A stretch of 17,913 bases of DNA from a virus (Duplodnaviria > Heunggongvirae > Uroviricota > Caudoviricetes): positions 1-17,913 of IMG/VR virus record IMGVR_UViG_2778261300_000005. One strand, 5' to 3'. A program made the translations under genes and the position numbers. The notes under the pieces were generated by a model. The model saw only the letters and a list, made by a program, of their open reading frames with translations. It searched no databases and was not told where the DNA came from. Positions 1-12,265 of the stretch are shown here, piece after piece. Position 1 is the first letter of the stretch, and each line of letters begins with the position of its first letter.

Positions 1-996
1 TTATGGACGCATTATGGACATTCCTGACACCGGGTTAAGAGTCACTGCATCTTGTAAGAAATCCGGTGCAAAGTGTGCGTAGGTCATAGTTTGCTGAATG
101 TTAGAATGACCCAGGATGCGCTGCAATGTGATTATGTTACCTCCATTCATTATAAAATGTGTGGCAAATGTATGCCTCAAAACATGCACTGCCTGTCCGT
201 CAGGTAAATCGGGTTTTACTTCCCTGAGAGCGTTGCGCACTTTGTAGTAACTGGCATTAAAAAGCCTGCCTGAATTTTTGGTCTTGATCCGTTTAATCAG
301 GTCCTGCGAAACGGGAATTGTCCTGCGCTTTCCGTTTTTAGTTTTCATAAACGTAACCATCTGGTTAATGATGTGTTCAGCTTTTAAATTAGACACTTCA
401 CTCCAGCGTCCACCAGTAGAAAGGCAGACCAGAGTCGCATTTAATTCATCACCATCGAGCATGGATAACAGCCGTGTAATCTCTTCACTGGACAAAAAAG
501 CCATTTCTGTAACAGCTTCACGTAATCGCTTAACCTCACGGAACGGGTTGTGAGAATGGTATTCACCGGCGTCAATTAACTTGGTGAACATCCCGCTCAT
601 TATTGCCAGATGCCGATTTACGCTGGCTGGTTTTAGACCATCGTTCATCATTACAACGCGATAATCAGTTATCGTTTTCTTTGTTAGCTGGTCAGCTCTG
701 GACACTCCCATTTCTGCAAATTTGGCGATTATTGTCGTCAAACGCCCCCGTTCAATATCTCCACGCTCATGTGATTTTCCGTGATATATCCACCATCTGC
801 CTAACAACTCTGTAAGAGTTCGGCGGTCGGCTGGCTTCTCCAGCCACTCTTTGTTGTGGTAGTTAACCAGTACATGACGTTCGAATGCTTGAGCTTCACC
901 TTTAGTTTTAAATTTCCGCCTGATACGTTTTCCATCTGCACCCTGCGGTCTGACGTCCACTTCATAACGACCATCATCGAGCTTTTTAATAGACAT
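1..996 (-). CDS. int: Tyrosine site-specific integrase, P2 Int-like
   Basis: 331-aa ORF with ATG at 996-994. The C-terminal region carries tyrosine-recombinase motifs (HVLRHTFATH...NGGNIITLQRILGHSNIQQTMTYAH). N-terminus MSIKKLDDGRYEVDVRP resembles P2 Int as I recall it. Position is at the prophage end, adjacent to the repressor. Confidence 0.9.
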   Translation of the reverse strand: MSIKKLDDGRYEVDVRPQGADGKRIRRKFKTKGEAQAFERHVLVNYHNKEWLEKPADRRTLTELLGRWWIYHGKSHERGDIERGRLTTIIAKFAEMGVSRADQLTKKTITDYRVVMMNDGLKPASVNRHLAIMSGMFTKLIDAGEYHSHNPFREVKRLREAVTEMAFLSSEEITRLLSMLDGDELNATLVCLSTGGRWSEVSNLKAEHIINQMVTFMKTKNGKRRTIPVSQDLIKRIKTKNSGRLFNASYYKVRNALREVKPDLPDGQAVHVLRHTFATHFIMNGGNIITLQRILGHSNIQQTMTYAHFAPDFLQDAVTLNPVSGMSIMRP

Positions 997-2540: not shown

Positions 2541-2603
2541 GTAATTAACCAAAGTTTTTAACGCACTTAATCGTGCGGGGCTTCTTTTTGCCTGGAGAAA
2601 GTC

Positions 2604-2816
2604 ATGCATACAGTTTCTGAAAATCAGTGCGGTAAATACGCATTAATGCTGCAACAGGCCAGAACCGAAGCACAGGCCGATGCAGCAACGCGCTTTTCGT
2701 CTCATCTTGATGCCATGATTCGCCACATCACAAAGGCGGAGTTATCCCGCGTGGAGATAGTCGAGTTGCTCAGTCAGGAGTCTGCCAAATTCCATAATCT
2801 AGGACTCAATAAATAA
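2604..2816 (+). CDS. Small hypothetical early protein, 70 aa
   Basis: ATG at 2604 preceded by GGAGA. Co-oriented in the early operon. Confidence 0.5.
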
Positions 2817-2830
2817 CAGGGAAGTTGGAG

Positions 2831-3076
2831 ATGACAAATACAAAATGGTTCAGGAAACGCTTAACAGATTATCAACTTTCATTACTTAAAAAATTAGATG
2901 ACAAGACTCCACTACATCCTTCAAGCGATGTCTTCCGCTCCTGTCCTAGTCGTGTGGAAAAAGCATTTATAGCAATGGGGAAATGGGGGCTTGTGACTAA
3001 ATCAAGAGAAGGTTTCTGTATTACCGATAATGGCCGGGAAATGATTGATTCTGCGGAGAGGGCATATAGCGAATGA
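2831..3076 (+). CDS. Small hypothetical protein, about 81 aa
   Basis: The ORF-track start at 2825 is a TTG; ATG at 2831 with AGGGAAG upstream is the likelier start. AT-rich relative to flanking genes. Confidence 0.45.
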   Translation: MTNTKWFRKRLTDYQLSLLKKLDDKTPLHPSSDVFRSCPSRVEKAFIAMGKWGLVTKSREGFCITDNGREMIDSAERAYSE

Positions 3077-3363
3077 AAAATATATTGCTTAATAACTGGC
3101 TGAAGATTTCAGTCATGAAAAATGGTGATTTGTCGCTAGCTGATATTAAACGCGATAAAAACACTGGGGATATGGTGGAATCAACTATAGCCATTTATGC
3201 GGATAAATTAAATCTCCTGTCTGATGTGGTCAATTTACTTGTTAAACGCGCTGTATTTCATAAGCAAATTTCATCCGTGGATGAACTGACAAAATTAACG
3301 ACAGAAATCGCCAGCTATTGCGCTGATGAATTTAAGAAGCTGAACGACAAAAGGAGCTGGTAA
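3073..3363 (+). CDS. Small hypothetical protein, 96 aa, AT-rich
   Basis: ATG at 3073 with GGAGAGGG upstream; start overlaps the previous gene's stop. Noticeably AT-rich codon usage. Confidence 0.5.
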   Translation: MKNILLNNWLKISVMKNGDLSLADIKRDKNTGDMVESTIAIYADKLNLLSDVVNLLVKRAVFHKQISSVDELTKLTTEIASYCADEFKKLNDKRSW

Positions 3364-3587
3364 TGCCGGACAACGTAGATTTTATTCAGGAACAACAGGC
3401 TGAATTACTGGAGCGTCAGATTAACGCGGCAAGGGTAAAACATTGCGGTGCTTCTGCGCTGGTTTGCGAAGAGTGTGACGCGCCAATACCTGCTGCCCGT
3501 CGTGCGGCTTATCCGTCAGCCACGCGTTGTGTTTCCTGCCAGTCAGTCTTTGAAGCAAAAAACAAACATTACCGGAGAACGGCATGA
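3363..3587 (+). CDS. TraR/DksA-family C4 zinc-finger protein
   Basis: 74-aa protein with CEEC...(17 residues)...CVSC spacing typical of the TraR/DksA zinc finger. AAGGAG sits 6 nt upstream of the ATG. P2-like and lambdoid phages commonly encode a TraR homologue in the early region. Confidence 0.75.
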   Translation: MPDNVDFIQEQQAELLERQINAARVKHCGASALVCEECDAPIPAARRAAYPSATRCVSCQSVFEAKNKHYRRTA

Positions 3588-3859
3588 GTATTCGTATTGA
3601 AATTGGCGAACGTTATGTCGTTACCAGTGACAGCTTTCAGTTTATTCTCCACGAGAAAAAGAGAGCGGAAAGCGGTAAAAACACCGGTCAGGAATGGCTG
3701 GCGGTGGTTGGTTATTATCCGAAATTAAGCCAGCTCGTTTCCGGCCTGATGCATCACGATATTCTGACCGGAAGCGCAAAGTCTTTTGCTGATTTAAACG
3801 CGCAGGTTGAGCAACTCAGCAGGCGTTGTTCAGAGGCTTTTGGCTCATATGGCCGTTAA
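3584..3859 (+). CDS. Hypothetical protein, 91 aa, immediately upstream of and overlapping A
   Basis: ATG at 3584 preceded by GGAGA; ATGA-type overlap with the preceding gene; the 3' end overlaps the A start by 11 nt. Confidence 0.55.
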   Translation: MSIRIEIGERYVVTSDSFQFILHEKKRAESGKNTGQEWLAVVGYYPKLSQLVSGLMHHDILTGSAKSFADLNAQVEQLSRRCSEAFGSYGR

Positions 3860-6134
3860 AGCCTCCGGGCGTTTTGTCCCTCCGTCAGCATTTGCTGCAG
3901 GCACCGGTAAGGCGTTTACCGGTGCTTATGCATGGAACGCGCCACGCGAGGCCGTCGGGCGCGAAAGACCCCTTACACGTGACGAGATGCGTCAGGTGCA
4001 AGGTGTTTTATCCACGATTAACCGCCTGCCTTACTTTTTGCGCTCGCTGTTTACTTCACGCTATGACTACATCCGGCGCAATAAAAGCCCGGTGCACGGG
4101 TTTTATTTCCTCACATCCACTTTTCAGCGTCGTTTATGGCCGCGCATTGAGCGCGTTAATCAGCGTCATGAAATGAACACTGACGCGTCGTTGCTGTTTC
4201 TGGCAGAGCGTGACCATTATGCGCGCCTGCCGGGAATGAATGACAAGGAGCTGAAAAAGTTTGCCGCCCGTATCTCATCGCAGCTTTTCATGATGTATGA
4301 GGAACTCTGCGATGCATGGGTTGATGCACATGGCGAGAAAGAATCGCTGTTTACAGATGAGGCGCAGGCGCATCTGTATGGTCATGTTGCTGGCGCTGCA
4401 CGTGCTTTCAATATTTCCCCTCTCTACTGGAAAAAATACCGTAAAGGACAGATGACCACGAGGCAGGCATATTCTGCCATTGCCCGTCTGTTTAACGATG
4501 AGTGGTGGACTCATCAGCTTAAAGGCCAGCGTATGCGCTGGCATGAGGCGTTACTGATTGCTGTCGGGGAGGTCAATAAAGACCGTTCTCCTTATGCCAG
4601 TAAACATGCCATTCGTGATGTGCGTGCACGCCGCCAGGCAAATCTGGAATTTCTTAAATCGTGTGACCTCGAAAACAGGGAAACCGGCGAGCGCATCGAC
4701 CTTATCAGTAAGGTGATGGGCAGTATTTCTAATCCTGAAATTCGCCGGATGGAGCTGATGAACACCATCGCCGGTATTGAGCGTTACGCCGCCGCAGAGG
4801 GTGATGTGGGGATGTTTATCACTCTGACCGCGCCGTCAAAGTATCACCCGACACGTCAGGTCGGAAAAGGCGAAAGTAAAACCGTCCAGCTAAATCACGG
4901 CTGGAATGATGAGGCATTTAATCCAAAGGATGCGCAGCGTTATCTCTGCCGCATCTGGAGCCTGATGCGCACGGCATTCAAGGATAATGATTTACAGGTC
5001 TACGGTTTGCGAGTCGTCGAGCCACACCACGACGGAACGCCGCACTGGCATATGATGCTTTTTTGTAATCCACGCCAGCGTAACCAGATTATCGAAATCA
5101 TGCGTCGCTATGCGCTCAAAGAGGATGGTGACGAAAGAGGAGCCGCGCGAAACCGTTTTCAGGCAAAACACCTTAACCGGGGCGGTGCTGCGGGGTATAT
5201 CGCGAAATACATCTCAAAAAATATCGACGGCTATGCACTGGATGGGCAGCTCGATAACGATACCGGCAGACCGCTGAAAGATACTGCCGCGGCTGTTACC
5301 GCATGGGCGTCAACGTGGCGCATTCCGCAATTTAAAACGGCTGGCCTGCCGACAATGGGTGCTTACCGTGAACTACGCAAATTGCCTCGCGGCGTCAGCA
5401 TTGCTGATGAGTTTGACGAACGCGTCGAGGCTGCACGCGCCGCCGCAGACAGTGGTGATTTTGCGTTGTATATCAGCGCGCAGGGCGGGGCAAATGTCCC
5501 GCGCGATTGTCAGACTGTCAGGGTCGCCCGTAGCCCGTCGGATGACGTTAACGAGTACGAGGAAGAAGTCGAGAGAGTGGTCGGCATTTACGCGCCGCAT
5601 CTCGGCGCGCGTCATATTCATATCACCAGAACCATGGACTGGCGCATTGTGCCGAAAGTGCCGGTCGTTGAGCCTTTGACTTTAAAAAGCGGCATCGCCG
5701 CGCCTCGGAGTCCTGTCAATAACTGTGGAAAGATCACCGGCGGTAATACTTCGTTACCGGCTCCCACGCCTTCTGAGCACGCCGCAGCAGTGCTTAATCT
5801 GGTTGATGACGGTGTTATCGAATGGAATGACCCGGAGGTCGTGAGGGCGCTCAGGGGCGCATTAAAATACGGGCTGAGAACACCAAATCGTCAGCAGAGA
5901 AACGGAAGCCCGTTAAAACCACATGAAATTGCACCATCGGCCAGACTGACCCGGTCGGAAAGAATGCAAATTACCCGTATCCGCGTTGACCTTGCTCAGA
6001 ACGGTATCAGGCCGCAGCGATGGGAGCTTGAGGCGCTGGCGCGTGGCGCGACCGTAAATTATGACGGGAAAAAATTCACGTATCCGGTCGCTGATGAGTG
6101 GCCGGGATTCTCAACAGTAATGGCGCGGACATAA
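3849..6134 (+). CDS. A: Replication initiator protein A (rolling-circle, HUH endonuclease)
   Basis: ATG at 3849 gives 761 aa beginning MAVKASGRFVPPSAFAAGTGK, which matches P2 gpA as I recall it, including its length. Contains the HUH-type metal-binding motif EPHHDGTPHWHMMLF. The ORF-track start at 3807 is a TTG extension. Confidence 0.92.
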   Translation: MAVKASGRFVPPSAFAAGTGKAFTGAYAWNAPREAVGRERPLTRDEMRQVQGVLSTINRLPYFLRSLFTSRYDYIRRNKSPVHGFYFLTSTFQRRLWPRIERVNQRHEMNTDASLLFLAERDHYARLPGMNDKELKKFAARISSQLFMMYEELCDAWVDAHGEKESLFTDEAQAHLYGHVAGAARAFNISPLYWKKYRKGQMTTRQAYSAIARLFNDEWWTHQLKGQRMRWHEALLIAVGEVNKDRSPYASKHAIRDVRARRQANLEFLKSCDLENRETGERIDLISKVMGSISNPEIRRMELMNTIAGIERYAAAEGDVGMFITLTAPSKYHPTRQVGKGESKTVQLNHGWNDEAFNPKDAQRYLCRIWSLMRTAFKDNDLQVYGLRVVEPHHDGTPHWHMMLFCNPRQRNQIIEIMRRYALKEDGDERGAARNRFQAKHLNRGGAAGYIAKYISKNIDGYALDGQLDNDTGRPLKDTAAAVTAWASTWRIPQFKTAGLPTMGAYRELRKLPRGVSIADEFDERVEAARAAADSGDFALYISAQGGANVPRDCQTVRVARSPSDDVNEYEEEVERVVGIYAPHLGARHIHITRTMDWRIVPKVPVVEPLTLKSGIAAPRSPVNNCGKITGGNTSLPAPTPSEHAAAVLNLVDDGVIEWNDPEVVRALRGALKYGLRTPNRQQRNGSPLKPHEIAPSARLTRSERMQITRIRVDLAQNGIRPQRWELEALARGATVNYDGKKFTYPVADEWPGFSTVMART

Positions 6135-6436
6135 TGACAAAGATTCACAAAGTAAAGCTGCACGCAAGATATTTCAACCTTGTGCTGGAGGGAAAAGAAA
6201 CGCACAGAATTTAGGGGGATAGCCGTTATCATGTGTATGAAGCACTTGAAATGTATCTGCATCACTTGGGAGTGTGTCAACGGGGAATTTCCATCTATGT
6301 GATTTTTTGAGAGCAATGCAGTGAAGATAAAGATACTTATTATAAATCAATGTGATAGATGATGCCTCGCAAACGTAAATGATAGTTTTGAAGCTTCAGG
6401 GCTGATGTCGTTCATAAGACTATGTTTACGCTATCA

Positions 6437-6469
6437 TTTATGATAAAAATAATTAATTTTTATCATAAA
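6437..6469. promoter_or_regulatory. Near-perfect 33-bp palindrome (14-bp arms TTTATGATAAAAAT / ATTTTTATCATAAA) directly upstream of the ParB-like gene; candidate operator/promoter
   Basis: Read directly from the sequence; one central mismatch. It lies about 15-50 bp upstream of the ATG at 6485. Related ATGATA/TATCAT half-sites recur at about 6375-6384 and 6431-6444. Confidence 0.35.
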
Positions 6470-6484
6470 GATTCAACAGAGGAT

Positions 6485-7996
6485 ATGTTGATGAATCAAC
6501 TAAAATCAATGAATATCAATAAGTTACTTTTGGATGTTGATAACCCTCGTTTCCCGACGTCAGCAGAAAATCAGCGTGATGCTATTGCCAAGATGCTTGA
6601 CTTGCAGTACGACCGCATTTATCGCTTGGCTAAAGATATTGCTTCGAAAGGTTTAGATCCGTCTGAAAACATATTAGTTTATCCTAGTGAAGAGGAATCT
6701 GGCTTTTTCGTCGTTGCTGAAGGTAATCGTCGAGTTACAGCCCTTAAACTTTTACACTCTCCTAGACTTGCACCAACAGAAAAAGCACGGAAAGCTTTTG
6801 AAAAACTTAAGATTACTCAGCTTAAAGATATTAATGTTATAGATAACTGCGTTCTTTTTGACGATGATGAATATGAGCATTGGGTTAATTTAAAGCATAC
6901 TGGTCAAAATGCTGGAGTTGGAAGAGTTGAATGGACTGCAACAGAAAAAGCACGGCATCTGGCTAGGATGGGTAAGCAGTCATTTGGTAATCAAATACTT
7001 ACATTTATAGAGTTCAATACTGATTTATATAAAGAGATAATTGCTAAAAAAAGACTTTTAAAAATCACAAACATCACGCGTCTTTTTGGTGATTTAAAGG
7101 TGAGGGATTATTTTAATTTAAAAAGCATTAATGGAGTTCTATACTCATATCAGCCTTATGAACGTTTTTGTGCACAATTAAAAAATATTTTAGATGTAAT
7201 GATTGAAGAGGATGATAAAGGTAAGGCTTGTTTTACTGTTAATAGGATTCGTAGCCAAGATGACAGGGTTACATTTATTATTGAACAAAAAATAAAACCT
7301 TCAGAATCTCTTTTAGATAAGCCGTGGAGTTTACTGGAGCCTAAATCTTTTCTTACAGAGAAAAAAGATGATTCTATTGACAAAAATGATGCCTCTGTGA
7401 GTGTAAAGAAAGTAGGTCTTTCAGAAGGTGATGCCTTAAAGAATACAGGTATGGATAAACAGGAAGATGATTATTCTAGACATGTAGGCACAGAAGAGAG
7501 TAAATCTAAAGTTTCGGGTACGGAACAGAATAAAAGCAAGGGAAAAACTCCTCCTAAAGTAGATCGTAATGTGTTGGTGCCATCTTATGTGAAATTTAAT
7601 TTTAGAGGGCATAAAAAATGCTCTAGAATATTTAATGAGCTTAAGTCGCATCTGACATTTGATAATACCCCTAATGCTATCTCAATATTGTTGAGAATAT
7701 TTATAGATCTCTCTGTAAGCACTTTTGTTGAAGAAAACAAGTTACAATTTAAGGAACCGCATAGAACTCCAGGGCTTCATGATAAGGTTAAAATGTGTGC
7801 TAATTTCCTTCGGGAAAATAAAAAGATGACGGGGAGTCAATGTACGGCTGTAATAACTTTCTCGAGCCAAATAACTAAACATGATGGTTCATTGCAGCAG
7901 TATGTACATAACCCACACTTAATTCCCTCAAAAGAGGCTGTCAACACTGAGTGGGATAACTTTGAGTTGTTATTAAGCCTTATTTGGAGTGAGTGA
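6485..7996 (+). CDS. ParB/Srx-like N-terminal domain protein with low-complexity linker and uncharacterised C-terminal domain (cargo gene 1)
   Basis: ORF 6422..7996; likely start ATG 6485 or 6491, with AGAGGA at 6478-6483. N-terminus has ParB-like box motifs (INKLLLDVDNPRF and ILVYP...FVVAEGNRRVTALKLL, compare ParB GERRxRA). Strongly AT-rich, unlike the phage backbone. Confidence 0.7.
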   Translation: MLMNQLKSMNINKLLLDVDNPRFPTSAENQRDAIAKMLDLQYDRIYRLAKDIASKGLDPSENILVYPSEEESGFFVVAEGNRRVTALKLLHSPRLAPTEKARKAFEKLKITQLKDINVIDNCVLFDDDEYEHWVNLKHTGQNAGVGRVEWTATEKARHLARMGKQSFGNQILTFIEFNTDLYKEIIAKKRLLKITNITRLFGDLKVRDYFNLKSINGVLYSYQPYERFCAQLKNILDVMIEEDDKGKACFTVNRIRSQDDRVTFIIEQKIKPSESLLDKPWSLLEPKSFLTEKKDDSIDKNDASVSVKKVGLSEGDALKNTGMDKQEDDYSRHVGTEESKSKVSGTEQNKSKGKTPPKVDRNVLVPSYVKFNFRGHKKCSRIFNELKSHLTFDNTPNAISILLRIFIDLSVSTFVEENKLQFKEPHRTPGLHDKVKMCANFLRENKKMTGSQCTAVITFSSQITKHDGSLQQYVHNPHLIPSKEAVNTEWDNFELLLSLIWSE

Positions 7997-8009
7997 GATT
8001 TGTCTACAT

Positions 8010-8027
8010 CTGGACATGGATGTCCAG
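8010..8027. promoter_or_regulatory. Inverted repeat CTGGACAT-GG-ATGTCCAG between the two cargo genes; candidate operator
   Basis: Perfect 8-bp arms read directly from the sequence, about 40 bp upstream of the methyltransferase ATG. The 2-nt spacer argues for a protein-binding palindrome rather than a hairpin terminator. Confidence 0.3.
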
Positions 8028-8065
8028 AAACTGATAAACTACAAAATCAGGAATGAGAGGGATTT

Positions 8066-8950
8066 ATGAAATTTTATACTCCATTAAGATACCCCGGCGG
8101 GAAAGGTAAGTTATCTTACTTTTTAAAAGATGTTATTGAAAAAAACTCGTTGAATGATGGAGCATATGCAGAACCTTACGCTGGTGGTGCAGGGGTGGCT
8201 TTAGAATTATTATTGGAAGAGTATGTCCGTAAAATCTATATAAATGATGCAGATTTTGCTGTTTATTCTTTTTGGTCATCTGTTGTTAGTGATACTGATG
8301 AGCTTTGCCGACTTATTAGCCGAGCAAAGATAGATATGGATGAATGGTCTTTTCATCGCTATGTTATTTCGAATCCTTCTGAGTTTACTAAGCTTGAGGT
8401 TGGCTTTGCTGCGTTTTTCTTAAATAGAACAAATCGTTCAGGTATTCTCAAGGCGGGGGTTATAGGTGGGAAATCACAAAATGGAAAATGGAAAATGGAT
8501 GTTCGCTTTAACAGGGCGGATTTAATTTCAAGAATTGAGAAGATAGCAAATTATAATCAAAGAATAGTAGTAACTAATCTGGATGCTTTGGATTTTCTTG
8601 ATGCCTTGAATTTTATGGATAATATGGGAAAGGTGGATAAAAATAAAATTCTTTTGTATTTGGATCCTCCTTACTATATTAAAGGGCAAGGGCTTTACAG
8701 GAATTTTTATGAGCATGATGATCATGTATTGGTTATGAAGAAACTCACAGAAATTAATTTCCCAAATTGGCTTGTTTCTTATGATAATGCTAAGGAAATT
8801 AAAGATATTTATAATGAATTTCCGCAAGTTGAGTATTCATTGCAATATACAGCGCATCTCAAAAAATCTGGAGAGGAAGTGATGATTTTTTCTCCTGAAA
8901 TAATTATTCCTAATACCCTGAAAGGGGTCTCAATGCCAACTTGCGCCTGA
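8066..8950 (+). CDS. D12-class (Dam-like) N6-adenine DNA methyltransferase (cargo gene 2)
   Basis: 294 aa; ATG at 8066 preceded by GAGAGGG. N-terminal LRYPGGKGKL and AEPYAGGAGVALELL resemble the E. coli Dam AdoMet-binding region (LKWAGGK, VEPFVGAGSV). FFLNRTNRSG resembles Dam LYLNRYGYNG. The catalytic DPPY motif is present (LYLDPPYY). AT-rich. Confidence 0.85.
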   Translation: MKFYTPLRYPGGKGKLSYFLKDVIEKNSLNDGAYAEPYAGGAGVALELLLEEYVRKIYINDADFAVYSFWSSVVSDTDELCRLISRAKIDMDEWSFHRYVISNPSEFTKLEVGFAAFFLNRTNRSGILKAGVIGGKSQNGKWKMDVRFNRADLISRIEKIANYNQRIVVTNLDALDFLDALNFMDNMGKVDKNKILLYLDPPYYIKGQGLYRNFYEHDDHVLVMKKLTEINFPNWLVSYDNAKEIKDIYNEFPQVEYSLQYTAHLKKSGEEVMIFSPEIIIPNTLKGVSMPTCA

Positions 8951-9097
8951 TTTTACTTATTTTTTGTCAGTAAGTAATTAGTTTGGTGCATTTATTTGCA
9001 TTCATTTTTAAATGCCAGTTCTGGTATCTGACATCAGTGCTGGCGCATTCTGACCATTACTGCTGCACTGCATTTAAAGCCCTGCATGAAGCGGGCG

Positions 9098-9116
9098 GGC
9101 GAGGCGGGGAAAGCAC
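9098..9116. other. cos site (19-nt cohesive end, P2-type)
   Basis: GGCGAGGCGGGGAAAGCAC matches the P2 cohesive-end sequence as I recall it. It lies between the cargo module and the leftward Q gene, as in P2. Confidence 0.6.
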
Positions 9117-9258
9117 TGCGCGCTGGCGGTGGTGCTGATTTTATTTTTTCAGCGTCTGAGCGCGTCGTGATGGCGTTTAGATTGTGCGCCGGGGTGTTGG
9201 TGTGTCTGCGGGATGTTTTGTGCGGTGGTGAGCGTGTGAGGGCGTGATGACGGGGTGT

Positions 9259-9280
9259 AAAAAAGCCGCCCGCAGGCGGC
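9259..9280 (-). terminator. Rho-independent terminator downstream of Q (minus strand)
   Basis: Minus strand reads GCCGCC-TGCG-GGCGGC followed by TTTTTT, immediately after the Q stop codon at 9286-9288. Confidence 0.5.
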
Positions 9281-9285
9281 GATGT

Positions 9286-10320
9286 TCAGCCGTTGTCAGT
9301 GTCCAGTGAGTAGTTTTTAAAGCGGATGACCTCCTGACCGAGCCAGCCGTTTATCTCGCGGATCCTGTCCTGTAACGGGATAAGCTCATTGCGGACAAAG
9401 ACCTTTGCCACTTTCTCAATATCACCCAGCGACCCGACGTTCTCCGGCTTGCCGCCCATCAACTGAAAGGGGATGCGGTGCGCGTCCAGCAGGTCTGCGG
9501 CACTGGCTTTTTTGATATTAAAAAAATCGTCCTTCGTCGCCACTTCACTGAGCGGGATAATTTTAATGCCGTCGGCTTTCCCTTGTGGGGCATAGAGAAA
9601 CAGATTTTTAAAGTTGTTGCGGCCTTTCGACTTCACCATGTTTTCGCGAAGCATTTCGATATCGTTGCGATCCTGCACGGCATCGGTGACGTACATGATG
9701 TATCCGGCATGTGCGCCGTTTTCGTAATACTTGCGGCGGAACAGCGTGGCCGATTCATTCAGCCAGGCAGAGTTAAGGGCGCTGAGATATTCCGGCAGGC
9801 CGTACAGCTCCTGATTAATATCCGGCTCCAGCAGGTGAAACACGGAGCCGGGTGCGAAGGCTGTCGGCTCGTTGAAGGACGGCACCCACCAGTAAACATC
9901 CTCTTCCACGCCACGGCGGGTATATTTTGCCGGTGAGGTTTCCAGTCTGATGACCTTACCGGTGGTGCTGTAACGCTTTTCCAGAAACGCATTACCGAAC
10001 ACCAGAAAATCCAGCACAAAGCGGCTGAAATCCTGCTGGGAAAGCCACGGATGCGGGATAAATGTCGAGGCCAGAATATTGCGTTTGACGTAAATCGGGG
10101 AGCTGTGATGCACGGCAGCACGCAGGCTTTTTGCCAGACCGGTAAAGCTGACCGGTGGCTCATACCATCTGCCGTTACTGATGCACTCAACGTAATCCAG
10201 AATGTCACGGCGGTCGAGTACCGGCACCGGCTCGCCAAAGGTGAATGCTTCCATTTTCGGGGCGCTGGCGGTGATTGTTTTTGCCGCAGGTCGCGGTGTT
10301 TTCCCTTTTTTCTTGCTCAT
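9286..10320 (-). CDS. Q: Portal protein (capsid portal vertex), P2 gpQ
   Basis: 344 aa, the same length as P2 Q as I recall; leftward orientation adjacent to cos; start overlaps the P stop by 1 nt. Confidence 0.9.
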   Translation of the reverse strand: MSKKKGKTPRPAAKTITASAPKMEAFTFGEPVPVLDRRDILDYVECISNGRWYEPPVSFTGLAKSLRAAVHHSSPIYVKRNILASTFIPHPWLSQQDFSRFVLDFLVFGNAFLEKRYSTTGKVIRLETSPAKYTRRGVEEDVYWWVPSFNEPTAFAPGSVFHLLEPDINQELYGLPEYLSALNSAWLNESATLFRRKYYENGAHAGYIMYVTDAVQDRNDIEMLRENMVKSKGRNNFKNLFLYAPQGKADGIKIIPLSEVATKDDFFNIKKASAADLLDAHRIPFQLMGGKPENVGSLGDIEKVAKVFVRNELIPLQDRIREINGWLGQEVIRFKNYSLDTDNG

Positions 10321-12092
10321 CAGTAAAACTCCAGAATGGTGGATGTCAGCGGGGGGCTGATACCGGCGGTGAGTGGCTCATTTAACAGGGCGTGCATGGT
10401 CGCCCAGGCGAGGTCGGCGTGGCTGGCTTCCTCGCTGCGGCTGGCCTCATAGGTGGCACTGCGTCCGCTGCTGGTCATGGTCTTGCGGATAGCCATAAAC
10501 GAGCTGGTGATGTCGGTGGCGCTGACGTCATATTCCAGACAGCCACGGCGGATAACGTCTTTTGCCTTGAGCACCATTGCGGTTTTCATTTCCGGCGTGT
10601 AGCGGATATCGCGCGCGGCGGGATAGAACGAGCGCACGAGCTGGAACACGCCGACACCGAGGCCGGTGGCATCAATCCCGATGTATTCAACGTTATATTT
10701 TTCGGTGAGTTTGCGGATGGATTCCGCCTGGGTGGCAAAGTCCATGCCTTTCCACTGGTGACGCTCAAGTATTCTGAATTTGCCACCGGCCACCACCGGC
10801 GGTGCCAGCACCACGCATCCGGCGCTGTCGCCACGGTGTGACGGGTCGTAACCAATCCATACCGGGCGGGAGCCGAACGGATTGGCGGCAAACGGCGCAT
10901 AGTCTTCCCATTCTTCCAGCGTGTCGACCATGCAGCGTTGCAGCTCCTCGAACGGGAACACCGACGCCTTGTCGTCAACAAATTCACACATGAACAGGTT
11001 TTTAAAATCGTCGGCGCTGTTTTCACGTTTGAGCTGCTCAATGTCGAACAGCGTGCAGCCACCTTTCAGGGCGTCCTCAATGGTGACAATCTGCCGCCAC
11101 TGGCCGTCCGCACAGAGAAGCCCACCGGCAAGGGCGTTATGACTGACGTCGATTTCCACGCGTTCGGCGGCGCTGGCGCGTCCCCGGTTGAACAGTTCAC
11201 CTGACCAGAACGGGTAGGCGTCGTGCGCCAGCGTGGACGGGGTGGAGAAATAGGTCGAACGCAGGTGACTCTGTGAGGCCATACCTGATGCCACCTTACG
11301 CAGTACCTGAAAATTCGGGATCCAGAAAATCTCGTCGACGTACAGGTCGCCGTTATGGCTCTGTGCGGTGTTGGAGTTGGTGCCGAGAAAAATCAGTTTT
11401 GCGCCGTTATTGCCCAGGACAATCGGGTCACCGGTCAGGTCAACGTCAACCAGACGGGCAAAGGCGATGATGTATTCGCGGAACACATACGCCTGCGTTT
11501 TACTGGCCGACAGAAAAATCTGGTTATGACCGGTTTTCAGGGCGCGCAGCAGCGCCTCGCGGGAAAAATAAAACGTCGCGCCAATCTGACGGGATTTCAG
11601 GATATCGCGGATGCGGTGCTCAAGCCCGGCGCGATACCAGTGCAACTGATATTCGAAAGACTGCTCAAAGAAAATCTGCTCCAGCTTTTCGATGGCCTCG
11701 TCACTGAAAAAATTCTTTTTCGGTTTGCGCCGCCCGCCTTTGTTGCGGTTAGCGACGTTCGGATTAAGGTCTGCCTCGTTGCCGGTCTGGCTGTAGCGGT
11801 TGACCCGTGCCAGTCGTTCAATCTGGCGTCCGAGCAGGTCAATTTCCTTGAAGTCACCGCCGGTTTTCTGCGGTTTGATGATGAGCTGGGTCAGCCGCGC
11901 TTCCAGACTCATTTCGACACGGCTGATGGGGGCAACGCTGTCCCAGCCGTCGCGCTGTTTCCAGCTCTGCACCGTCGGGCGTTTCATCTGCAACATGGCG
12001 GCAATCTGCGGCACGGAAAACCCCTGCCAGTACAGCAGCGCCGCCTGACGACGCGGGTCGTGTAAAAGAGTGGTGTCTGTGGTGATGGTCAT
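10320..12092 (-). CDS. P: Terminase large (ATPase) subunit, P2 gpP
   Basis: ATG at 12092-12090 gives 590 aa starting MTITTDTTLLHD, matching the P2 P length as I recall. The ORF-track start at 12122 is an upstream extension. Confidence 0.9.
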   Translation of the reverse strand: MTITTDTTLLHDPRRQAALLYWQGFSVPQIAAMLQMKRPTVQSWKQRDGWDSVAPISRVEMSLEARLTQLIIKPQKTGGDFKEIDLLGRQIERLARVNRYSQTGNEADLNPNVANRNKGGRRKPKKNFFSDEAIEKLEQIFFEQSFEYQLHWYRAGLEHRIRDILKSRQIGATFYFSREALLRALKTGHNQIFLSASKTQAYVFREYIIAFARLVDVDLTGDPIVLGNNGAKLIFLGTNSNTAQSHNGDLYVDEIFWIPNFQVLRKVASGMASQSHLRSTYFSTPSTLAHDAYPFWSGELFNRGRASAAERVEIDVSHNALAGGLLCADGQWRQIVTIEDALKGGCTLFDIEQLKRENSADDFKNLFMCEFVDDKASVFPFEELQRCMVDTLEEWEDYAPFAANPFGSRPVWIGYDPSHRGDSAGCVVLAPPVVAGGKFRILERHQWKGMDFATQAESIRKLTEKYNVEYIGIDATGLGVGVFQLVRSFYPAARDIRYTPEMKTAMVLKAKDVIRRGCLEYDVSATDITSSFMAIRKTMTSSGRSATYEASRSEEASHADLAWATMHALLNEPLTAGISPPLTSTILEFY

Positions 12093-12265
12093 GAATACCT
12101 CGCCGTGATGAATACACGGCAAGGCTACTGAGTCGCGCCCCGCGATTCGCTAAGGTGCTGTTGTGTCAGTGATAAGCCATCCGGGACTGATGGCGGAGGA
12201 TGCGCATCGTCGGGAAACTGATGCCGACATGTGACTCCTCTAATCACTATTCAGGACTCCTGACA
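12093..12265. promoter_or_regulatory. Divergent late promoter region (P2 Pp/Po equivalents, Ogr-dependent)
   Basis: Non-coding gap between the divergent P and O genes, where P2 has its Ogr-activated late promoters. I did not confidently locate the TGT-N12-ACA activator dyad by eye. Confidence 0.4.

Follow-up and report, generated by a model that had tools for sequence, protein, structure and literature searches.

The window, that is, the whole stretch of 17,913 nucleotides analysed here, is a P2-like prophage, in which Pfam recognises an integrase, the replication gene A, a portal gene and a terminase gene. A cargo island of low GC content separates gene A from the portal gene; it occupies the P2 gene A / portal hotspot, and in it two genes, PD-lambda-5A and PD-lambda-5B, follow each other on the same strand. 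The features on which the argument draws are these.

1-996, minus strand: integrase
3849 (annotated start) to 6134 (end): replication gene A (gpA, PF05840)
6135-9000 (about): low-GC cargo island, GC 0.25-0.45 per 100 nt, against 0.57 before and 0.59-0.61 after it
6422-6490, plus strand: in-frame 5' extension of the upstream gene, probably untranslated, with a candidate promoter at 6425-6453 and an AGAGGA ribosome-binding site before the ATG at 6491
6491-7996, plus strand: PD-lambda-5A, 501 aa, with a predicted N-terminal ParB/Srx domain, a linker and a predicted HEPN-fold C-terminal domain
7997-8065, plus strand: spacer of 69 nt between the two genes, with an 8+8 bp inverted repeat at 8010-8027 and the GAGAGGG ribosome-binding site of PD-lambda-5B
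8066-8950, plus strand: PD-lambda-5B, ATG start, TGA stop, 294 aa, alpha-class D12 DNA amino-methyltransferase
8081-8110, plus strand: motif X region PLRYPGGKGK, residues 6-15, with P6-K13 invariant in 20 homologues (compare LRYPGGKSK of M.CbeI)
8171-8197, plus strand: motif I (SAM binding) EPYAGGAGV, residues 36-44, with E36, P37, A39, G40 and G41 invariant
8663-8677, plus strand: motif IV (catalytic) DPPYY, residues 200-204, with D200-Y204 invariant, aligning with DPPY of M.CbeI
9286-10320, minus strand: portal gene (PF04860)
10320-12122, minus strand: large terminase gene

The two genes resemble each other in composition, with a GC content of 0.351 for PD-lambda-5A and 0.347 for PD-lambda-5B as against 0.529 for the prophage backbone, and both the AT-richness and the prophage cargo slot described in an earlier note on this DNA are thus borne out. 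The P2 genes old and tin and the other cargo of P2 hotspot 1 share the gene A / portal slot, the low GC content and the character of prophage-expressed defence genes, but encode proteins unrelated to those of PD-lambda-5.

The mechanically derived reading frame of PD-lambda-5A opens at 6422, but its methionine at 6491 is the start in RefSeq, in the PADLOC profile and in 31 homologues. A promoter and terminator scan of positions 6100-9300 returned 14 matches against a shuffled expectation of 10.8, which is no excess, so that the promoter-like site at 6425-6453 is kept as a candidate. The spacer between the genes has an RNA fold z-score of -2.2; its 8+8 bp repeat recurs with one mismatch in the Salmonella orthologue and is absent from the Serratia orthologue.

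The methyltransferase and the published system

All three motifs quoted for the 294-aa reading frame in the earlier note can be located in it, and in an alignment of 20 homologues, with identities down to 56%, the cores of all three are unchanged. In alpha-class amino-methyltransferases motif X and a motif I of the FxGxG type are N-terminal, motif IV, (D/N/S)PP(Y/F), is C-terminal and the target-recognition region lies between; PD-lambda-5B has RYPGGK at residues 8-13, AGGAG at 39-43 and then DPPY at 200-203. Its match to the Pfam profile PF02086 (MethyltransfD12; E 4.4e-16, 59.8 bits with a cut-off of 22) extends over residues 9-256 and over positions 1-246 of the 253 in the profile, a score that puts it far beyond chance. 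The D12 assignment of the earlier note therefore stands, and PD-lambda-5B is a SAM-dependent DNA amino-methyltransferase of the D12 class and alpha type, with cofactor and catalytic motifs intact.

One question then is in what system this enzyme serves. PADLOC identifies it as PD-Lambda-5_B (E 7.9e-122, profile positions 1-280 of 291) and the gene that precedes it by 69 nt on the same strand as PD-Lambda-5_A (E 5.9e-168). The methyltransferase is identical at 291 of 294 residues to RCQ13838.1 of E. coli ECOR7, with which it falls into one 90% cluster and from which it is separated by the substitutions A180V, E251G and V288G; the upstream protein, for which the comparison with RCQ13837.1 is one of cluster and profile, belongs to the same 90% cluster family as its ECOR7 counterpart and matches the PADLOC profile end to end. 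The published 2461-bp ECOR7 interval corresponds in length to positions 6491-8950 of the window, and the ECOR7 system has its two genes in the same order and in the same P2 gene A / portal hotspot. By every testable criterion, then, the pair is PD-lambda-5, a system already known.

PD-lambda-5 was discovered in ECOR7 through a functional selection (Vassallo et al. 2022, Nat Microbiol; PMC9519451). Table S2 of that publication places the system on contig QOWS01000001 at 264599-267059 (RCQ13837.1 and RCQ13838.1), Table S1 labels the pair 'ParB/HEPN, methyltransferase', and the location is given as the P2 gene A / portal hotspot. Cloned under its native promoter, the system protects E. coli against phage, with weaker protection against lambda-vir or T7 than against T-even phages; the host had to be MG1655 with the mrr-containing region deleted; and the authors read the system as 'compact RM + Abi' (PMC9519451). 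That such a host was needed implies an active methyltransferase in vivo, whose mark a methylation-dependent nuclease sees. By analogy with the 99%-identical ECOR7 system, the copy in the window would likewise confer anti-phage defence. The role of the gene, which the earlier note had called open, is consequently known at the level of the system, since PADLOC recognises the pair and the validated ECOR7 protein shares 99% identity with the methyltransferase. The later literature, as far as its text was accessible, catalogues PD-lambda-5 or repeats the 'RM + Abi' remark, and in it we found no mechanistic follow-up and no experiment on protection by PD-lambda-5B methylation against PD-lambda-5A, on toxicity of PD-lambda-5A alone or on its cleavage substrate. 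Similarly, a search of the ECOR and methylome literature yielded no usable methylated motif for the enzyme, and the earlier note was right that its target cannot be predicted from sequence alone.

The upstream protein and the mode of action

Searches of Pfam and the PDB with PD-lambda-5A as a single sequence returned no matches; its architecture was taken from an AlphaFold2 model built on a 32-sequence alignment. In the model, residues 1 to about 288 fold into an N-terminal region, residues 289-354 form a disordered linker of variable composition and residues 355-501 an all-helical C-terminal domain. The N-terminal domain is modelled as a ParB/Srx fold that retains the conserved GxxR(R) loop; the structures closest to it are those of the CTP-binding proteins ParB, KorB and Noc, and the ParB-type NPR and GxRR (EGNRR) motifs are invariant in the homologues. 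The C-terminal domain is modelled as a four-helix up-and-down HEPN fold with the motif (Q/N/H)(Q/A/S)YVHN and invariant R359, E383, R402, Y471, H473 and N474. The Rx4-6H motif is absent from this domain, in which H473 is invariant and is preceded at a distance of 4-6 residues by no conserved arginine. The model thus confirms the label 'ParB/HEPN', for which the HEPN call of Vassallo et al. had weak HHpred support (8-36% probability), and it portrays the HEPN domain as non-canonical.

None of the catalytic folds of restriction enzymes that were looked for (PD-(D/E)xK, HNH, GIY-YIG, PLD) was found in PD-lambda-5A, which has no Pfam match and only the ParB/Srx and HEPN folds, and with respect to its nuclease fold PD-lambda-5 is not a classical Type II restriction-modification system. 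It does recall the fusions of ParB and HEPN, and the operons of a HEPN protein, a ParB nuclease and a DNA methylase, that Anantharaman et al. (2013) predicted to be linked to restriction-modification. Their operons (MAE_28990, Saro_3948) contain the same three modules, the likeness being one of module composition; in PD-lambda-5 ParB and HEPN are instead fused in a single protein, and its HEPN-fold domain is without Rx4-6H.

The reading we favour, at a probability of roughly 0.8, is that PD-lambda-5B is the methyltransferase subunit of the two-gene anti-phage system PD-lambda-5, which sits in the P2 hotspot as lysogenic-conversion cargo, and that this subunit marks the DNA of its own cell. Both proteins would be made together from the prophage, the methyltransferase gene lying downstream of its partner on the same strand, and PD-lambda-5B would methylate a specific sequence throughout the DNA of the lysogen, most likely at N6 of adenine, as a mark of self. 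PD-lambda-5A would be sensor and effector at once, acting on infecting DNA that is without the mark, by NTP-dependent DNA binding or nicking through its ParB/Srx domain and/or through its HEPN-fold domain, which would probably cleave RNA and so bring about abortive infection. The original authors, with their 'compact RM + Abi', read the system in this way. Several observations sit uneasily with it, namely that PD-lambda-5A has no classical restriction-endonuclease fold, that its HEPN-fold domain is without the catalytic Rx4-6H motif, and that T-even DNA, with its glucosyl-hydroxymethylcytosine, resists most restriction enzymes, yet T-even phages are held back more strongly than lambda-vir or T7, a preference that fits poorly with a simple sequence-specific restriction enzyme. 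A further one is the uncertainty over the modified base, the sole detectable relative of solved structure being the N4-cytosine enzyme M.CbeI.

Because T-even phages are the better blocked and a classical endonuclease fold is wanting, we weigh separately a purely abortive mechanism gated by methylation, which we consider rather unlikely. PD-lambda-5A would then cut no DNA; its ParB/Srx domain would be an NTP-dependent clamp or sensor that reads the missing mark, and the clamp would switch on the HEPN-fold domain, with the result that RNA is cleaved and the infected cell arrested. The kinship of the N-terminal domain with CTP-binding ParB, KorB and Noc, together with the retention of NPR and GxRR (EGNRR), speaks for such a clamp, as do the lack of a restriction-endonuclease fold and the better blocking of T-even phages, whose DNA resists most restriction enzymes. 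The missing Rx4-6H dyad of the HEPN domain speaks against it, and so does the nicking of DNA reported for some ParB/Srx proteins.

The modified base

Whatever the action of its partner, the self mark postulated for PD-lambda-5B depends on the base that the enzyme modifies. The GATC adenine enzymes E. coli Dam, T4 Dam and DpnM have PF02086 and the alpha-class motif order in common with it; Dam, however, is an orphan chromosomal enzyme, while PD-lambda-5B is paired and prophage-borne. The NCBIfam profile for dam, TIGR00571, scores it at 47.1 bits, below the cut-off of 114.85 for the Dam subfamily. A PDB search with PD-lambda-5B alone found only 7M6B (M.CbeI, E 2.3e-12), a search with a profile of 20 family sequences again only 7M6B (E 4e-21), and at E <= 0.01 that profile retrieved neither Dam, T4 Dam nor DpnM. 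The name 'Dam-family' used in the earlier note therefore overstates the relationship.

M.CbeI of Caldicellulosiruptor bescii is itself an alpha-class Pfam D12 protein of similar length, with an N-terminal RYPGGK and a catalytic DPPY. Its partner is a HaeIII-type restriction enzyme rather than a ParB/Srx-HEPN protein, and despite its annotation as a D12 adenine methylase it forms N4-methylcytosine in GGCC (Chung et al. 2012). DmtB of Anabaena, an alpha-class relative of M.CbeI, likewise forms N4-methylcytosine. Since M.CbeI carries both RYPGGK and DPPY and yet makes N4-methylcytosine, the motifs alone are not diagnostic for adenine, and to that extent the earlier assignment to the N6-adenine methyltransferases went too far, even if adenine is still the likely target. 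The relationship to M.CbeI is, as far as the literature examined goes, a modest addition to the published description of the system.

In this context the same PD-lambda-5 system could operate with N4-methylcytosine in place of N6-methyladenine. The position of M.CbeI as sole relative in the PDB, its own history of annotation, the failure to detect Dam and its kin and the TIGR00571 score below the cut-off all favour this variant. On the other side, the HMMER alignment of PD-lambda-5B with M.CbeI is distant (accuracy 0.71) and has many gaps, and characterised D12 enzymes are for the most part adenine-specific. Mrr recognises N6-methyladenine and 5-methylcytosine and is not known to recognise N4-methylcytosine, so that the need for a host without the mrr region also counts against N4-methylcytosine, but the extent of that deletion is unstated and mcrBC, the neighbour of mrr, does recognise N4-methylcytosine. 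Unmodified cytosine, moreover, is absent from T-even DNA, yet the T-even phages are restricted best. Because of the D12 norm, the specificity of Mrr and the strong restriction of T-even phages, we consider it likely that PD-lambda-5B writes N6-methyladenine and unlikely that it writes N4-methylcytosine.

Linkage of the methyltransferase to its partner

How tightly the two genes are linked was assessed from both sides. On the methyltransferase side, relatives of PD-lambda-5B at 45-59% identity were taken from 80 genomes, which span many phyla and of which 77 had enough upstream DNA. A co-oriented upstream partner was present at 71-73 of these 77 loci. At 60 it was a PD-lambda-5A-like gene, directly preceding the methyltransferase gene on its strand at a median distance of 4 nt, and two more such genes had atypical spacing; at 11 the place of PD-lambda-5A was taken by an OLD-like ABC ATPase of about 570 aa (Pfam AAA_15 and AAA_21), the single example examined showing a weak Toprim match; and four loci had no recognisable partner. 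The sample on the other side comprised 74 full-length PD-lambda-5A-like genes from IMG/VR viral contigs, at 23-100% identity. A methyltransferase of the PD-lambda-5B family was in the locus for 72 of them, and since the remaining two loci stop at a contig edge, this is 72 of 72 evaluable cases. The methyltransferase gene followed in tandem downstream in 62, was convergent, tail to tail (0-8 nt), in nine and lay 2.6 kb away in one.

Among 5426 complete E. coli genomes the cassette occurs in 22, each time undivided on the chromosome, at 99.3% identity or more and with both genes annotated as intact. The gene A / portal slot also houses the orthologues in Salmonella (88% identical) and Serratia (70% identical). 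Because the linkage persists across gene orientations and host phyla, it must be functional, and a functional linkage rejects a stand-alone methylase that acts in anti-restriction or epigenetically. PD-lambda-5B is thus a modification partner obligatorily linked to PD-lambda-5A and no orphan, and of the two roles proposed in the earlier note, protective partner of the upstream ParB-like protein or stand-alone phage methylase, the near-absolute two-way linkage upholds the first and contradicts the second.

It is accordingly highly improbable that PD-lambda-5B acts independently of PD-lambda-5A, as an orphan phage methyltransferase that shields the P2-like genome from host restriction or serves as an epigenetic regulator. 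Solitary D12 methylases are, to be sure, common in temperate phages, and the match to PHROG 56 ('DNA methyltransferase', E 8e-62), the weak matches to the PADLOC orphan-methyltransferase models (1e-21) and the four loci without a partner point in that direction. An orphan, however, has no conserved linked effector gene, whereas PD-lambda-5B has one in near-absolute linkage, tandem or convergent, across phyla; the gene lies outside the replication and late modules of the phage, in a lysogenic-conversion hotspot with defence genes such as old and tin; and the validated phenotype of the pair is defence (PMC9519451). That the gene is, or was recently copied from, the dam of the host, as the shared Pfam family and the RefSeq name 'DNA adenine methylase' might suggest, is practically out of the question, as the earlier note had also argued, given the TIGR00571 score of 47.1 against 114.85, the GC content of 0.347 against 0.53 and the occurrence in 22 of 5426 E. 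coli genomes, always in a prophage.

The OLD-partnered methyltransferases, which come from other bacteria, Neisseria and Acinetobacter among them, form a single clade in a neighbour-joining tree, a sister clade to that of PD-lambda-5B. That one methyltransferase clade can take either a ParB-HEPN protein or an OLD-like ATPase as partner is, again as far as the literature examined goes, a second modest addition to the published description. A bolder proposal, which we regard as rather doubtful, would combine it with the domain models. PD-lambda-5 would then be a methylation-gated abortive device with a non-canonical HEPN-fold effector (H473/N474/R402), and the methyltransferase clade an exchangeable self-marking module that can be joined to either ParB-HEPN or OLD-like ATPase nuclease partners.

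The copy in the window, being nearly identical to a published and validated defence gene and lying in its usual place, is a correct but ordinary finding. PD-lambda-5 itself acts broadly and is widely distributed; for its Salmonella orthologue alone the assembly collection has 2301 indexed blocks. Since the cassette is rare and horizontally mobile, host genomes are not expected to be adapted to it, and for this reason restriction-site avoidance was set aside as a guide to the target of its methyltransferase. The linkage counts and the domain models narrow down further work on the mechanism of PD-lambda-5. For lysogens that carry the cassette we would expect an additional methylation pattern, which could keep their DNA from being transferred into K-12 strains whose mrr region is intact.

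Boundaries of the cassette in the prophage hotspot

The cassette consists of PD-lambda-5A (A), a ParB-HEPN protein, and the D12-class methyltransferase PD-lambda-5B (B), and the following features of the window lie at its edges.

6135-6216: DUF3850 gene remnant, 82 nt, beginning at the stop codon of prophage replication gene A
6425-6453: promoter-like site
9265-9282, minus strand: GC-rich hairpin GCCGCC-TGCG-GGCGGC followed by TTTTTT, immediately past the portal gene stop

The mechanically called open reading frame of PD-lambda-5A exceeds the real gene by 23 codons (6422-6490), the start being placed at 6491 by the homologues, RefSeq and the PADLOC profile alike, and it is within this 5' extension that the promoter-like site is located. 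The DUF3850 remnant, labelled 'frameshifted; incomplete' by RefSeq, is a scar of earlier hotspot cargo that was replaced or truncated by the cassette. At the opposite edge the hairpin is a terminator of the late operon, which reads toward the cargo; 3' of the methyltransferase no terminator of comparable strength was found on the plus strand.

The same hotspot in Serratia prophages carries, in addition to PD-lambda-5, a HicA/HicB toxin-antitoxin pair, with the methyltransferase on one side of it and the portal gene on the other (locus L085, 6226-6821; L086, 6478-6822, where HicB alone is called). A Salmonella prophage (L084, 7252-7998) and a Serratia prophage (L086, 7898-8584) each have an additional open reading frame, of 228-248 amino acids, that matches Terminase_6N. 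It separates the portal gene from the full-length terminase gene, of which it represents a partial duplication.

In 9 of the 22 cassette-bearing complete E. coli chromosomes (survey hits H65, H66, H68, H70, H77, H78, H81, H83 and H84, with the cassette at record positions 2552-5112) the record starts, within 1 nt, at the start codon of prophage replication gene A. Evidently, these assemblies were rotated onto the phage gene A instead of dnaA, which is an artefact of the assembly pipeline.

Partner protein and its ParB-like relatives

Charged and polar residues abound in the linker joining the two domains of PD-lambda-5A (residues 289-354; A2 alignment columns about 330-450; window about 7355-7550), which, with pLDDT below 50, is predicted to be disordered. 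Among the homologues it varies in both length and sequence, and the two adjoining domains are conserved.

The ParB-like N-domain is resembled by the first ~300 residues of a protein found in other P2-like phages (26% identity, E 5e-9), the genes lying at the record ends: Wphi gp98 (AY135739.1, 31504-32451) and its P2-type counterpart (NC_070904.1, 234-1181). In both records the methyltransferase is absent alongside the ParB-type gene, and the encoded protein may belong to a different ParB-based cargo gene.

Spacer, exchange of partner and gene orientation

8010-8027: perfect inverted repeat CTGGACAT-GG-ATGTCCAG, 8+8 bp, inside the 69-nt spacer separating A and B

The RNA fold z-score is -2.2. 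The Salmonella orthologue (L082) retains this repeat with a single mismatch, and the Serratia orthologue (L085) lacks it. It could serve as an operator, as an RNA processing site or as an attenuator setting the A:B ratio.

In 11 of the 80 genomes an OLD-like ABC ATPase replaces the ParB-HEPN protein upstream of a methyltransferase of the same clade.

Loci with an OLD-like partner: L011 (4214-5920), L015 (4176-5921), L019 (4230-5963), L023, L031, L039, L053, L058, L062, L073, L075

These ATPases match AAA_15 and AAA_21, the one in L011 also giving a weak match to Toprim, and their hosts include Neisseria, Acinetobacter, Haemophilus, Nitrosospira and Acidovorax, among others. The OLD-partnered methyltransferases form a single clade, three members of which (L028, L056 and L069) have an A-like partner and are reversions.

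Nor is the tandem order universal. In nine IMG/VR viral contigs (L124-L128, L136, L142, L145 and L166) the A-like gene converges on the B-like gene, their 3' ends lying 0-8 nt apart or, in L145, overlapping by a few nucleotides. The linkage of A and B is therefore independent of co-transcription.
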